A program made the translations under genes and the position numbers. A stretch of DNA of 64,000 nt from Escherichia coli (lineage in GTDB: Bacteria; Pseudomonadota; Gammaproteobacteria; Enterobacterales; Enterobacteriaceae), in the NCBI RefSeq assembly GCF_024700885.2, contig NZ_CP117016.1, one strand, 5' to 3'. Position 1 is the stretch's first letter. Every line of letters starts with the position of its first letter. Below, in pieces: positions 3,419 to 64,000 of the stretch. The notes below the pieces were generated by a model, which did no database searches, was not told the DNA's origin, and saw nothing but the letters and a program-made list of their open reading frames with translations.

Positions 3419-3503
3419 GCCGAAGTGGCGAAATCGGTAGACGCAGTTGATTCAAAATCAACCGTAGAAATACGTGCCGGTTCGAGTCCGGCCTTCGGCA
3501 CCA
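3419..3503 (+). tRNA. leuX: tRNA-Leu (anticodon CAA)
   Basis: 85-nt sequence GCCGAAGTGG...TTCGAGTCCGGCCTTCGGCACCA with a CAA anticodon loop and long variable arm; genomic position after ahr. Confidence 0.9.
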
Positions 3504-9878: not shown

Positions 9879-10406
9879 TAAACAGGAAACACGGGGAGGT
9901 TCACTTTGCTTTCTCCTGTAGTATTTTCTGTAGGTTCTGAACCGGTTCGAGCGGGGTTGTGAGGCTGATGGCAATCCCCGGGCTCTTCCTGCATGTTACA
10001 CTGGTACTGCAACAGGGGGCCTTCGCTCCTATGACATTACTCAGTATTTTCACTACTACACCCCATCTGCCATCCATAACAACCGATTCACCCCCTCGGG
10101 AGGCGTTGTTGCCCGTCACCCGGACAGGCATCGTTATGGACTTCTCTTGTTGCACGATCGATCAATTGTTATGCATGCTGACACCACTACCCCGGTGGGT
10201 ATGACCGATGCCTTTCTCACTCTCTTCCCGGTCATCGTCGGCCTTCCCCGTTATTGTGGCGTGTCGGCACCATCGACGGCATTTCGATGGCTGCTCAGTG
10301 TTCACTCACGTTACGGCCCGCATAACCCATTGACTTCCTGAAGAAGTCGTTTCAGGGAGAGATTCAGCCCTTTTGTTACCTCCTGGACCGCTTCCTGTCC
10401 TTCCAG

Positions 10407-10681
10407 TTGGAGCGAGAGTTAGTCGGGGCGGACTTTCACCGACGGAAAGATCGTGCATTTCAAGGCACACACAACAATATCTGCGAGCGTGCTATCCGTC
10501 CGGTCGTTATGGGACGAAAGGCCTGGTTGTTCGCTGGTTCACTGATGGCCGGGAACCGAGCGGCACAGATAATGAGCCTTCTGGAAACAGCAGTCTGGAG
10601 CCACATGCTTGGCTGACGGACGTCCTAACGCGTCTGCCCGGAGTGGCCGGAGGAGAGGTTGGCAGAGTTACTGCCTCTTGA
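10407..10681 (+). pseudogene. IS66-family transposase (TnpC) C-terminal fragment
   Basis: ERAIRPVVMGRKAWLFAGS motif in one frame, continuation in another. Confidence 0.55.
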
Positions 10682-44400: not shown

Positions 44401-44710
44401 TCACTTAAAACGGCATCCATTTTACAAAAGATGGCCGTCTGTGTATTTATAATGAATACCTTCTACATGTTTAGAGTGCATAATCCACGACAAGGCGATA
44501 TCCTAAAAATTAGCTAGCAGGCAACTTTGATGGCATAGATAATGTTTTTAGTAAAAAAGAGTTGACTTAATATAATACAGCCTCTTCCTACATAAGAAGG
44601 AATGTGCTCACAAAAAAAAACATTAGTCTGCTTCCTGTTCTTACAATAATCAGTATTATGTATTTTATTTATATAGCAAAATATGCTTGTTACACCTGTC
44701 ATAATTAGGC

Positions 44711-57108: not shown

Positions 57109-57227
57109 ACACTCTGCCAGGGGAAATGCCTGATTACATTGCGTTAACCAACTGAAAACATGACACAAACACCTCATGCCCCTCCTGTTTCTCTTGCGTG
57201 ACTGCTCTGCTGTTAATAGAATAAAAC

Positions 57228-57263
57228 GATCGATAAAACAGGTATCGATCGTTACTATCGATC
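57228..57263. promoter_or_regulatory. agn43 phase-variation switch: three GATC Dam sites in the OxyR-binding region
   Basis: GATC at 57228, 57247 and 57260 within cgatcgataaaacaggtatcgatcgttactatcgatcg, upstream of flu. Confidence 0.75.
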
Positions 57264-57422
57264 GTTTATAGTGGTTAATGGTCTGCGAAAAGGCAGCTGA
57301 ATCTCTTCATCATGCAGAACGGAATTGCACACAACGGACTGATACTTCTCTGGCGGATGAGAGAGGGGAAGCATTTATGTCCGGGAAAAACCACTTTATC
57401 TGACCATGCTGTTTTGTACCTG

Positions 57423-57457
57423 CCGGTATCCACATTTGTGGGTACCGGCTTTTTTAT
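57423..57457 (+). terminator. Rho-independent terminator-like hairpin in the agn43 leader
   Basis: 11-bp stem ccggtatccac...gtgggtaccgg with one G-U pair, then CTTTTTTATT, 24 bp upstream of the flu ATG. Confidence 0.6.
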
Positions 57458-57480
57458 TCACCCTCTGTAAGGAAAAGCTG

Positions 57481-60327
57481 ATGAAACGACATCTGAACAC
57501 CAGCTACAGGCTGGTATGGAATCACATTACGGGCACCCTGGTGGTGGCTTCCGAACTGGCGCGCTCACGGGGAAAACGCACCGGTGTGGCGGTTGCGCTG
57601 TCTCTTGCTGCTGTCACGTCAGTCCCGGTACTGGCTGCTGACACGGTCGTACAGGCGGGAGAAACCGTGAGCGGCGGAACACTGACAAATCATGACAACC
57701 AGATTGTCTTCGGTACGGCCAACGGAATGACCATCAGTACCGGTCTGGAGTATGGGCCGGATAACGAGGCCAATACCGGCGGACAATGGATACAAAATGG
57801 CGGTATCGCCAACAACACTACTGTCACCGGTGGTGGTCTTCAGAGAGTGAATGCCGGAGGAAGCGTTTCAGACACGGTTATCAGTGCCGGAGGCGGACAG
57901 AGCCTTCAGGGGCAGGCAGTGAACACCACTCTGAACGGCGGTGAGCAGTGGGTACATGAAGGCGGGATTGCAACGGGTACCGTCATTAATGAGAAGGGCT
58001 GGCAGGCCGTCAAATCCGGCGCAATGGCAACCGACACGGTTGTGAATACCGGCGCGGAAGGGGGACCGGATGCAGAAAATGGTGATACCGGGCAGTTTGT
58101 TCGCGGAAATGCCGTACGTACCACTATCAATGAAAATGGTCGTCAGATTGTGGCTGCTGAAGGAACAGCAAATACCACTGTGGTTTATGCCGGCGGCGAC
58201 CAGACGGTACACGGGCATGCGCTGGATACCACACTGAATGGCGGTTACCAGTATGTGCACAACGGAGGCACAGCCTCTGACACGGTTGTAAACAGTGACG
58301 GCTGGCAGATTGTCAAGGAAGGTGGTCTGGCGGATTTCACCACCGTTAACCAGAAAGGCAAACTGCAGGTGAACGCCGGTGGTACAGCCACGAATGTCAC
58401 CCTGAAGCAGGGAGGCGCACTGGTCACCAGTACGGCGGCAACCGTCACCGGCAGCAACCGTCTGGGCAATTTCACTGTGGAAAACGGTAATGCTGACGGT
58501 GTTGTTCTGGAGTCCGGTGGTCGCCTGGATGTACTGGAGGGCCATTCAGCCTGGAAAACACTGGTGGATGACGGCGGAACCCTGGCAGTGTCTGCCGGTG
58601 GTAAGGCAACAGATGTCACCATGACATCCGGTAGTGCCCTGATTGCAGACAGTGGTGCCACTGTTGAGGGGACCAATGCCAGCGGTAAGTTCAGTATTGA
58701 TGGCACATCCGGTCAGGCCAGCGGACTGCTGCTGGAAAATGGCGGCAGCTTTACGGTTAATGCCGGAGGACTGGCCAGCAACACCACTGTCGGACATCGT
58801 GGAACACTGACGCTGGCTGCCGGGGGAAGTCTGAGTGGCAGAACACAGCTCAGTAAAGGTGCCAGCATGGTACTGAATGGCGATGTGGTCAGTACCGGCG
58901 ATATTGTTAACGCAGGGGAGATTCGCTTTGATAATCAGACGACACCGGATGCCGCGCTGAGCCGTGCTGTTGCAAAAGGCGACTCCCCGGTAACGTTCCA
59001 TAAACTGACCACCAGTAACCTCACCGGTCAGGGTGGCACCATCAATATGCGTGTTCGCCTTGATGGCAGCAATACCTCTGACCAGCTGGTGATTAATGGT
59101 GGTCAGGCAACCGGCAAAACCTGGCTTGCGTTTACAAATGTCGGAAACAGTAACCTCGGGGTGGCAACCTCCGGACAGGGTATCCGGGTTGTGGATGCAC
59201 AGAATGGCGCCACCACAGAAGAAGGTGCGTTTGCCCTGAGTCGCCCGCTTCAGGCCGGCGCCTTTAACTACACCCTGAACCGTGACAGCGATGAAGACTG
59301 GTACCTGCGCAGTGAAAATGCTTATCGTGCTGAAGTCCCCCTGTATACATCCATGCTGACACAGGCAATGGACTATGACCGGATTCTGGCAGGCTCCCGC
59401 AGCCATCAGACCGGTGTAAACGGTGAAAATAACAGCGTCCGTCTCAGCATTCAGGGCGGTCATCTCGGTCACGATAACAACGGCGGTATTGCCCGTGGAG
59501 CCACGCCGGAAAGCAGCGGCAGCTATGGCTTCGTCCGTCTGGAGGGTGACCTGCTCAGAACAGAGGTTGCCGGTATGTCTCTGACGACAGGGGTGCATGG
59601 TGCCGCAGGCCATTCTTCCGTTGATGTTAAGGATGATGACGGTTCCCGCGCCGGCACGGTCCGGGATGATGCCGGCAGCCTGGGCGGATACCTGAATCTG
59701 ACACACACGTCCTCCGGCCTGTGGGCTGACATTGTGGCACAGGGAACCCGCCACAGCATGAAAGCGTCATCGGACAATAACGACTTCCGCGCCCGCGGCT
59801 GGGGCTGGCTGGGCTCACTGGAAACCGGTCTGCCCTTCAGTATCACTGACAACCTGATGCTGGAGCCACAACTGCAGTATACCTGGCAGGGACTTTCCCT
59901 GGATGACGGCCAGGATAACGCCGGTTATGTGAAGTTCGGGCATGGCAGTGCACAACATGTGCGTGCCGGTTTCCGTCTGGGCAGCCACAACGATATGAGC
60001 TTTGGTGAAGGCACCTCATCCCGTGACACCCTGCGCGACAGTGCAAAACACCGTGTGCGTGAACTGCCGGTGAACTGGTGGGTACAGCCTTCTGTTATCC
60101 GCACCTTCAGTTCCCGGGGTGACATGAGCATGGGGACAGCCGCCGCCGGCAGTAACATGACGTTCTCACCGTCCCGGAATGGCACGTCACTGGACCTGCA
60201 GGCCGGACTGGAAGCCCGTGTCCGGGAAAATATCACCCTGGGCGTTCAGGCCGGTTATGCCCACAGTGTCAGCGGCAGCAGCGCTGAAGGTTATAACGGT
60301 CAGGCCACGCTGAATGTGACTTTCTGA
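57481..60327 (+). CDS. flu: Antigen 43 autotransporter adhesin (948 aa)
   Basis: Signal peptide, repetitive beta-helix passenger (TVxNxGG repeats), C-terminal beta-barrel ending ...TLNVTF. Confidence 0.85.
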
Positions 60328-60361
60328 TAATCAGGTCACTCTCCTTCAGGCCCCGGTCATC

Positions 60362-60556
60362 ATGACCGGGGCTTTTTACTTTCAGGGAGCAACAGATATG
60401 CCGGGTTGTACATCACGTTTATTGCCCGAAGGCCCTTTCTCACGCGAACAGGCTGTTGCCGTCAAAACAGCTTACCGCAATGTATTTACTGAAGATGACC
60501 AGGGAACATATTCCCGGCTGGTTATCCGTAATGCTGAAGGTCAGTTGCGCTGGTGA
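60362..60556 (+). CDS. Small hypothetical protein (64 aa)
   Basis: ORF only, downstream of flu. Confidence 0.3.
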
Positions 60557-60710
60557 TGCCGGAACACAGCTTAATACTCAGCTCGCCAGTTAAGGGCTTC
60601 TCAGACAATAAACGTCATTCATTTCATCTGTCAGGCCGCGTCTTCTCCGGGAGACGCAGCTTTTTCATTTATTACACCAGTAAATCGTAACCACCGATAA
60701 GGAGCAAATT

Positions 60711-61529
60711 ATGCGACTAGCCAGTCGTTTTGGTTATGCGAACCAGATACGCCGTGACCGTCCGCTGACACACGAAGAACTGATGCACTATGTTCCCAGT
60801 ATTTTCGGTGAAGACCGGCATACTTCCCGCAGTAAACGATATGCGTACATTCCCACCATCACCGTACTGGAAAGCCTGCAGCAGGAAGGTTTTCAGCCAT
60901 TCTTCGCCTGCCAGACCCGCGTGCGCGACCCGGGCCGCCGGGGATACACAAAACACATGCTGCGTCTGCGGCGGGCCGGAGAGATAAACGGAGAACATGT
61001 CCCTGAAATTATTCTGCTCAACTCTCATGACGGTACCTCCAGCTACCAGATGCTGCCGGGTTACTTCAGATTCGTCTGCCAGAATGGCTGCGTCTGCGGT
61101 CAGTCTCTGGGGGAAGTGCGTGTTCCACACCGGGGAAATGTGGTGGAGAAAGTTATCGAAGGGGCTTACGAAGTGGTGGGGGTTTTTGACCGGATTGAGG
61201 AAAAGCGTGATGCCATGCAGTCGCTGGTCCTGCCGCCACCGGCACGCCAGGCGCTGGCACAGGCGGCACTGACTTACCGTTATGGTGACGAACATCAGCC
61301 AGTCACCACCGCTGACATTCTGACGCCACGACGCCGGGAGGATTACGGTAAGGACCTGTGGAGTACTTATCAGACCATCCAGGAGAATATGCTGAAAGGC
61401 GGGATTTCCGGCCGCAGTGCAAAAGGAAAACGTATCCACACCCGTGCCATTCACAACATCGACACCGATATTAAGCTCAACCGCGCATTGTGGGTAATGG
61501 CAGAAACGCTGCTGGAGAGCCTGCGCTGA
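60711..61529 (+). CDS. DUF932-family protein (YafZ/YfjQ-like)
   Basis: 272 aa; strong SD aaggag; conserved CP4-type module position. Confidence 0.7.
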   Translation: MRLASRFGYANQIRRDRPLTHEELMHYVPSIFGEDRHTSRSKRYAYIPTITVLESLQQEGFQPFFACQTRVRDPGRRGYTKHMLRLRRAGEINGEHVPEIILLNSHDGTSSYQMLPGYFRFVCQNGCVCGQSLGEVRVPHRGNVVEKVIEGAYEVVGVFDRIEEKRDAMQSLVLPPPARQALAQAALTYRYGDEHQPVTTADILTPRRREDYGKDLWSTYQTIQENMLKGGISGRSAKGKRIHTRAIHNIDTDIKLNRALWVMAETLLESLR

Positions 61530-61870
61530 TGCAGCATGTCCCTGAAGGCGTGATTCAGGCACCAGAATCACCCGACGCCCCGGAGGCGCTGCCGGGGTGT
61601 CGTTCCATTTCTGATGATGACCTGTGCGCCTGGTGTACCCGTCTGCTTTACCGTCCCGGAGAAATCAGTCTGTGCAGACTGAGTATACAGGCAATGGCAT
61701 CTGGCCATCCGTCTGTGACCGGAACGGTTACGCGTACGGCTGTCCGGAATTTCAGCCGAATATCATTCATCCCTGATATTACCGGGTCATCACGGTCAGT
61801 GATGAACGTGATGTTGCCAGGTCCCGACCTTTACTCCCTCTCATTTATTCACATTACAAGGATTTCATAC

Positions 61871-62344
61871 ATGAAAACATTGTCTCAGAACACCACCTCT
61901 TCGGCCTGTGCACCGGAGACTGACCTGCAACAACTGGTTGCCACCCTCGTCCCTGATGAACAGCGCATCAGCTTCTGGCCGCAGCACTTTGGCCTCATTC
62001 CACAGTGGGTGACCCTGGAGCCCCGTGTCTTCGGCTGGATGGACCGTCTGTGCGAAGACTACTGCGGTGGTATCTGGAATCTGTACACCCTGAACAACGG
62101 CGGGGCATTTATGGCACCCGAACCGGATGACGATGATGACGAAACATGGGTACTGTTCAATGCCATGAACGGTAACCGCGCTGAAATGAGTCCGGAAGCT
62201 GCCGGCATTGCTGCCTGTCTGATGACGTACAGTCATCATGCCTGTCGTACGGAGTGTTATGCCATGACGGTCCATTATTACCGGCTGCGGGATTACGCCC
62301 TGCAGCATCCGGAATGCAGCGCCATTATGCGCATCATCGACTGA
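61871..62344 (+). CDS. Antirestriction protein (KlcA/ArdB-like, YfjX/YafX family)
   Basis: ...AAGIAACLMTYSHHACR...YYRLRDYALQHPECSAIMRIID; start at MKTLSQNT (the frame is open upstream to 61490). Confidence 0.7.
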   Translation: MKTLSQNTTSSACAPETDLQQLVATLVPDEQRISFWPQHFGLIPQWVTLEPRVFGWMDRLCEDYCGGIWNLYTLNNGGAFMAPEPDDDDDETWVLFNAMNGNRAEMSPEAAGIAACLMTYSHHACRTECYAMTVHYYRLRDYALQHPECSAIMRIID

Positions 62345-62359
62345 ATGGAGAGAAGTACA

Positions 62360-62836
62360 ATGCAACAGCTTTCCTTTCTGCCCGGAGAGATGACGCCCGG
62401 CGAGCGCAGCCTCATTCAACGGGCCCTGAAAACCCTGGACCGCCATCTTCATGAACCCGGCGTGGCCTTCACCTCCACCCGTGCGGCACGAGAATGGCTG
62501 ATTCTGAACATGGCGGGACTGGAGCGTGAAGAGTTCCGGGTGCTGTATCTGAACAACCAGAATCAGCTGATTGCCGGTGAAACCCTCTTCACCGGCACCA
62601 TCAACCGCACGGAAGTCCATCCCCGTGAAGTGATTAAACGCGCCCTGTATCACAATGCCGCTGCTGTGGTGCTGGCACACAATCACCCGTCCGGTGAAGT
62701 CACACCCAGCAAGGCAGACCGCCTTATCACGGAACGTCTGGTACAGGCACTGGGCCTGGTGGATATCCGGGTGCCGGACCATCTGATAGTCGGTGGCAGC
62801 CAGGTTTTCTCCTTTGCCGAATATGGTCTGCTTTAA
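62360..62836 (+). CDS. RadC-like JAB-domain protein (YeeS/YkfG family)
   Basis: JAMM motif HNHPSGEVTPSKAD; start at MQQLSFLPGE with SD ggagagaag. Confidence 0.8.
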   Translation: MQQLSFLPGEMTPGERSLIQRALKTLDRHLHEPGVAFTSTRAAREWLILNMAGLEREEFRVLYLNNQNQLIAGETLFTGTINRTEVHPREVIKRALYHNAAAVVLAHNHPSGEVTPSKADRLITERLVQALGLVDIRVPDHLIVGGSQVFSFAEYGLL

Positions 62837-62898
62837 CCCGTCACAACCACATCACACCTGTTTTCACTTTTATCTTCTGTCTTCAGAGGTATCCCACT

Positions 62899-63120
62899 AT
62901 GAAAATCATCACCCGTGGCGAAGCCATGCGTATTCACCGTCAGCATCCGGCATCCCGTCTTTTTCCGTTCTGTACCGGCAAATACCGCTGGCACGGCAGT
63001 GCTGAAGCGTATACCGGTCGTGAAGTGCAGGATATTCCCGGTGTGCTGGCCGTGTTTGCAGAACGCCGTAAGGACAGTTTTGGTCCGTATGTCCGGCTGA
63101 TGAGCGTCACCCTGAACTGA
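62899..63120 (+). CDS. DUF987-family protein (YeeT-like)
   Basis: 73 aa; conserved position between the RadC-like gene and cbeA. Confidence 0.65.
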   Translation: MKIITRGEAMRIHRQHPASRLFPFCTGKYRWHGSAEAYTGREVQDIPGVLAVFAERRKDSFGPYVRLMSVTLN

Positions 63121-63282
63121 TGTTCCGTCACCCGGAAAACGAGTACGACTGGCTGAGCTCAGACGCCGCTGTGGATGAGGCCCTGCTCATCAACGAATAC
63201 ACCTTCACCGAAGCCGGTCTGTGCACCGGCTGACCCGTCATCGTTAAACTATCATTCACCGATTTTCTGTGAGGATTTTATC

Positions 63283-63651
63283 GTGTCAGACACACTTTCC
63301 GGGACAACGCATCCCGATGACAATGACGACCATCCCTGGTGGGGACTACCCTGCACAGTGACGCCCTGTTTCGGCGCCCGTCTGGTGCAGGAGGGTAACC
63401 GGTTGCATTACCTTGCCGACCGTGCCGGTATCAGAGGCCGGTTCAGAGATGCGGATGCGTACCCTCTGGACCAGGCCTTTCCGCTGCTGATGAAACAACT
63501 GAAATTAATGCTCACCAGTGGTGAACTGAATCCCCGCCATCAGCATACCGTGACACTGTATGCGAAGGGGCTGACCTGTGAAGCCGACACCCTCGGCTCC
63601 TGTGGTTACGTTTATCTGGCTGTTTATCCGACACCTGAAACGAAAAAGTAA
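63283..63651 (+). CDS. cbeA: CbeA/YeeU-family type IV antitoxin
   Basis: GTG start with SD gaggat; ...[33 protein letters not shown]...[31 protein letters not shown]. Confidence 0.8.
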
Positions 63652-63740
63652 ACCACCAGAATAACCTTCTGCTCCGGCCTGGTGTTTTCACCACGCCACT
63701 GTCCCATTTTTTATCTCTGCATATCAGGAAAATCTTCAGT

Positions 63741-64000
63741 ATGAAAACATTACCCGACACGCATGTACGGGAGGTATCGTGCTGCCCGTCTCCCGTCACC
63801 ATCTGGCAGACACTGCTCACCCGGTTACTGGACCAGCATTACAGCCTTACGCTGAATGACACACCGTTCGTGGATGAACGCGTGATTGAGCAGCATATTG
63901 AGGCAGGCATTTCACTGTGTGATGCAGTGAACTTTCTCGTGGAAAAATACGCACTGGTACGAACTGACCAGCCGGGATTCAGCGCAGGAGCCTCGTCGCA
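63741..64000 (+). CDS. cbtA: CbtA/YeeV-family toxin, 5' portion (runs off window end)
   Basis: [11 protein letters not shown]...[43 protein letters not shown]. Confidence 0.8.

Follow-up and report, generated by a model that had tools for sequence, protein, structure and literature searches.

The right-hand end of the DNA examined here, a window of 64,000 nt (the whole stretch that was analysed), carries a toxin-antitoxin pair of the CbeA/CbtA type. A complete antitoxin gene of the CbeA/YeeU family is followed on the same strand by a gene of the CbtA/YeeV toxin family that reaches the window edge, and the two stand behind a row of genes with the same orientation. The features of this region are:

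60711-61529, plus strand: DUF932 gene (YfjQ/YafZ-like); PF06067, E 2.6e-52
61871-62344, plus strand: antirestriction protein gene; PF03230, E 2.2e-37
62360-62836, plus strand: RadC-like JAB domain gene (YeeS-like); PF04002, E 3.4e-44
62899-63120, plus strand: DUF987 gene (YeeT-like), directly 5' of the pair; PF06174, E 1.5e-40
63120-63233, plus strand: gene remnant of 37 codons between the DUF987 and antitoxin genes, recognized by alignment to strain L008
63271-63275, plus strand: Shine-Dalgarno sequence GAGGA, 7 nt 5' of the antitoxin GTG
63283-63651, plus strand: antitoxin gene, CbeA/YeeU family, complete; 122 aa, GTG start, PF06154
63652-63740, plus strand: antitoxin-toxin spacer of 89 nt, with AGGA 11 nt 5' of the toxin ATG
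63741-64000, plus strand: toxin gene, CbtA/YeeV family, running off the window edge; codons 1-86 plus 2 nt of codon 87, PF06755

The antitoxin and toxin genes

The antitoxin ORF, as read from the sequence, extends over 122 codons from a GTG at 63283 to a TAA at 63649-63651, and its product matches PF06154 (CbeA_antitoxin) over positions 1-100 of the 101 in the model (E 3.8e-53; 178.7 bits, cutoff 27). This full-length match above the gathering score places it in the family, as does the position of the gene directly 5' of a CbtA-family toxin gene on the same strand, with the toxin ATG at 63741. RefSeq gives the same coordinates and GTG start to WP_001295723.1 (YeeU family) in E24377A and MLI114. 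The initial annotation had proposed a GTG start with a good Shine-Dalgarno sequence, and both parts of this proposal are borne out: GAGGA lies 7 nt upstream, the 24 nt 5' of the GTG are conserved relative to K-12 cbeA (TGAGGA here, TAAGGA in K-12), and the annotated start of K-12 cbeA is a GTG as well, which can thus be regarded as a standard feature of the family. We rejected a longer antitoxin ORF beginning at an ATG at 63175, since the part similar to K-12 reaches just some 24 nt upstream of the GTG, and the YeeU sequences of the PDB entries align from residue 1. The YeeU structures 2H28 (E. coli) and 2INW (Shigella) match at E ~1e-75 and are near-identical to the antitoxin over residues 1-119/121, with a few substitutions, so that its fold can be taken as known; a PDB search for a solved relative of the CbtA-family toxin found none.

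The toxin ORF begins with the ATG at 63741 and has reached no stop when the window ends, after 86 codons and 2 nt, as the initial annotation had noted. Those 86 residues match PF06755 (CbtA_toxin) with an E value of 1.1e-47 (161 bits, cutoff 25) over model positions 1-84 of 112, and the match therefore extends essentially to the window edge. Both Pfam matches are far beyond chance. Scanned against NCBIfam, neither these two proteins nor the K-12 proteins or the neighbours matched any model, and equivalog and family level are not separable on that basis.

Identical DNA in other genomes provides a view of the 38 toxin codons that lie outside the window. The last 1.2 kb of the window are 100% identical in six complete E. 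coli chromosomes, including those of E24377A and MLI114; identity to MLI114 is complete over the final 19,389 nt, and the whole window equals the MLI114 chromosome (NZ_CP117013.1) save for one A9/A10 homopolymer difference at 44621. MLI114 is a human stool isolate from Mali. In MLI114 and E24377A the toxin is WP_000854765.1, a RefSeq CDS of 375 nt and 124 aa (CbtA family) that carries no pseudogene flag, and the 86 residues encoded in the window are 100% identical to it. The ORF of 124 aa lies within the family range of approximately 109-127 aa, and the predicted end of the toxin gene corresponds to window position 64115. A truncation just past the window would have undermined the initial annotation, and none was seen in any of the identical genomes examined, the CDS in MLI114 being intact.

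The 89-nt spacer between the genes is about 93% conserved relative to the cbeA-cbtA spacer of K-12, which is 88 nt long. A small hairpin at about 63676-63697 was considered as a regulatory structure and ruled out, its fold z-score of -1.18 not being significant, and Rfam gave no matches in the toxin-antitoxin region. In a scan of 60300-64000, promoter and terminator counts were close to the shuffled expectation, with no sigma-70-like site on the plus strand near or just 5' of the antitoxin gene.

Island context and relation to the K-12 systems

The window begins in core genes (lptG, yjgR and ahr) and passes through tRNA-Leu(caa) at 3419-3503; the remainder is a large, IS-rich leuX island, a mosaic of PTS and sugar-acid clusters and many IS fragments that also includes lpxM and what remains of virK. 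The island exceeds 60 kb and is heavily IS-rearranged, and the only annotated integrase near the tRNA gene is a truncated tyrosine recombinase about 6 kb away. Near the site at which this recombinase is annotated in MLI114, in the left part of the island, Rfam finds a group II intron domain D1-D4 (10306-10445, minus strand, 66.3 bits). Farther upstream of the right-hand genes are a DUF905 gene with a frameshift, the gene for the Ag43 autotransporter (57406-60327) and a GTPase gene whose LeoBC/LeoA-like matches in PADLOC were only weak. A full-length Rfam match to the IS102/IsrC sRNA (57226-57462, plus strand, 74.6 bits) lies just 5' of Ag43, and isrC likewise precedes flu in K-12 CP4-44. The DUF905 gene (60362-60593), 3' of Ag43, covers only positions 2-46 of the 70 in its Pfam model, and RefSeq treats it as a pseudogene in the identical genomes.

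The genes from DUF932 onwards stand in the order DUF932, antirestriction, RadC/JAB, DUF987, antitoxin and toxin, each assigned by Pfam, which is the order of a CP4-like right-hand module. The same order is seen in K-12 in CP4-6 (yafZ ... yafX, ykfG, ykfH, yafW, ykfI) and CP4-57 (yfjQ ... lfgA, lfgB, ypjJ, yfjZ, ypjF), and in this respect the description of the region as a typical CP4-type right-hand module stands. The further claim that the pair completes the module does not, because further conserved genes come after the toxin, namely DUF5983 and DUF957, with DUF4942 in certain strains. In MLI114, E24377A and five other sampled strains the toxin is followed by a DUF5983 gene that overlaps its stop by 4 nt (partial in L008); DUF957 comes next, and often DUF4942 too in the same sample. 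In MLI114 (L002 34114-44002), DUF5983 and DUF957 are succeeded by genes for an SNF2-related protein, a DNA methyltransferase of 1040 aa and a DEAD/DEAH helicase, a cluster that looks like a defence system. No PADLOC defence-system model matched the toxin-antitoxin pair or its neighbours.

Two intervals within the module are of some note. Between the DUF987 and antitoxin genes, the start of a 37-codon ORF overlaps the stop of DUF987 (ATGA), and its peptide matches the C-terminus of hypothetical proteins of strains L008 and L011, in which the intact counterpart is a gene of 214-227 aa situated between DUF987 and the antitoxin (L008 807-1451, L011 807-1490). Window positions 63121-63300 align at 94% to L008 1339-1518. 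The deletion here amounts to about 550 bp and accounts for the 162 nt that separate DUF987 from the antitoxin; K-12 CP4-44 has lost still more of the interval and has a gap of 73 nt. Between the DUF932 and antirestriction genes, 341 nt (61530-61870) are unannotated, with no Pfam or NCBIfam match; they are open in the antirestriction frame (ORF 61490-62344) and include a hairpin rich in GC at 61573-61602. In strain L009 the corresponding genes lie only 91 nt apart.

The closest of the K-12 systems is CbeA/CbtA (YeeU/YeeV) of the cryptic prophage CP4-44. The antitoxin is 89.3% identical to CbeA, compared with 65.7% to YfjZ and 60.0% to YafW, and the full toxin is 85.5% identical to CbtA, compared with 62.4% to YpjF and 59.3% to YkfI; with the Pfam matches, these values uphold the assignment of a CbeA/CbtA-type pair at the window edge. 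CP4-44 has the same antitoxin-toxin order, GTG antitoxin start and lengths (122 and 124 aa), and shares with the window pair the upstream neighbours YeeS (RadC) and YeeT (DUF987), the toxin residue F65 and the spacer. The two differ in chromosomal site (here the leuX island, in K-12 the CP4-44 locus), in the DUF987-antitoxin gap, and in the toxin sequence, where residues 6-15 diverge from the VLPGQAASSR of K-12, ending in C15 instead of R15, and further differences are S35, V44, GASS at 83-86 and H107. YafW/YkfI (CP4-6) and YfjZ/YpjF (CP4-57) belong to the same Pfam families, and their toxins have both C15 and F65, but they are more distant (59-66% identity): their antitoxins are 105 aa long and do not have the 14-residue N-terminal extension, their toxins are shorter (109-113 aa), and their spacers are 20 nt rather than 89 nt.

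Such pairs are widespread. DNA of the full pair was matched in 4926 of 5426 complete E. coli genomes (approximately 90%), at a median of three places per genome and a maximum of 12, and the pair is present at 99% identity or more in 334 complete-genome records. A published E. coli survey likewise describes CbtA_toxin as multi-copy, with CbeA upstream (PMC10790755). The pair is thus an ordinary toxin-antitoxin system of the cbeA/cbtA family, one that is already known and nearly ubiquitous in E. coli.

Mode of action and alternative readings

With its genes identified and intact, in the arrangement described and with F65 conserved, we read the locus as one copy of the cbeA-cbtA (yeeU-yeeV) family toxin-antitoxin operon within the conserved right-hand block of a CP4-like island at tRNA-Leu (leuX), probably acting as in K-12; we put the probability of this reading at about 0.9. 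Overproduction of K-12 CbtA gives lemon-shaped, non-growing cells (Heller et al., 2017, PMC5624674). In that protein F65S abolishes binding to FtsZ, at the H6/H7 loop, and R15C abolishes binding to MreB, at the flat double-protofilament face; each interaction is independent of the other, and toxicity is lost only in the double mutant (PMC5624674). The antitoxin CbeA is reported not to bind the toxin but to bind FtsZ and MreB and stabilize bundles of their filaments, which makes the system type IV (PMC5624674). YkfI and YpjF act similarly and are neutralized by YafW and YfjZ (Wen et al., 2017, PMC5371832).

By homology to these systems we infer the toxicity, targets and mode of neutralization of the window pair. 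In excess, the toxin (~124 aa) would bind the H6/H7 loop of FtsZ through a surface that includes F65, a determinant of FtsZ interaction that is conserved in CbtA, YkfI and YpjF and present here. It would also bind the flat double-protofilament face of MreB, and with both division and elongation blocked the cells would become swollen, lemon-shaped and non-growing. The antitoxin, co-expressed from upstream, would not sequester the toxin, as in the K-12 work, and would instead itself bind FtsZ and MreB and promote bundling of their filaments, offsetting the toxin in type IV fashion; this neutralizing role is suggested by its 89% identity to K-12 CbeA. Membership of the family is no guarantee of the same targets, given that an Erwinia homologue with 63% identity that keeps both R15 and F65 bound neither FtsZ nor MreB in yeast two-hybrid assays (PMC6521040); at 85% identity within E. 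coli, the same targets are likely.

The functional unit could be larger than two genes, with the downstream DUF5983 protein serving as a third partner that modulates or neutralizes the toxin. The overlap of its gene with the toxin stop is an ATGA in MLI114, the gene is 3' of the toxin in that strain and in 5/5 other sampled strains (partial in L008), and in the survey cited above DUF5983 is listed among the partners that recur downstream of CbtA_toxin (PMC10790755). We nevertheless think this unlikely, because in the K-12 work CbeA alone neutralizes CbtA (PMC5371832, PMC5624674), and K-12 yeeW is a short fragment only and the pair still functions.

A second alternative concerns the N-terminus of the toxin. 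Were Cys15 and the divergent residues 6-15 to restrict this allele to FtsZ, it would produce filamentation rather than lemon-shaped cells, and the K-12 R15C substitution, which specifically abolished the two-hybrid interaction with MreB and gave filaments (PMC5624674), offers a precedent for a protein that, like this one, carries C15. The effect of residue 15 is evidently dependent on context, however, as YpjF, in which C15 is natural, still interacts with MreB, and the C15R substitution made no difference in either YpjF or YkfI (PMC5624674). The N-terminal sequence DTHVRE(V/A)S(C/R/S)C with Cys15 (window 63741-63785, residues 1-15) is moreover common to 5/5 other sampled E. coli CbtA-like alleles, and Cys15 is found in YkfI and YpjF as well. 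Taken together, the distribution of Cys15, the binding of MreB by YpjF and the absence of an effect of C15R mean that Cys15 does not point to a loss of function and that R15 does not define the family; among the CbtA-like alleles compared, it is K-12 CbtA, the experimentally studied protein, whose Arg15 is the outlying, minority state. An FtsZ-only toxin accordingly strikes us as improbable, slightly more so than a DUF5983 partner.

Least credible is the proposal that a cryptic element has decayed and left the pair as a non-functional remnant, unexpressed or with an inactive toxin, which we consider very unlikely: the island is indeed degraded (the frameshifted DUF905 gene, the deletion in the 214-aa gene just upstream, IS debris and the truncated integrase) and the antitoxin gene has no promoter-like site just 5' of it, but both ORFs are intact and of canonical length with full Pfam coverage, F65 is conserved, and the pair recurs at the near-identity noted above in several hundred genome records.

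For this particular copy the consequences are small, in that the analysis confirms the RefSeq annotation of identical DNA and shows the toxin to be intact past the window edge, while adding nothing new. There is a slim chance that the DTHVRExSxC/Cys15 class of alleles has another target spectrum (for example, a weakened or altered binding to MreB), or that the overlapping DUF5983 gene encodes a functional third component; if either were true, the picture of the family derived from K-12 would undergo a modest revision. The general interest of the family lies in a dual inhibitor of FtsZ and MreB that is also a marker of CP4-like islands, several of which are present per E. coli genome.
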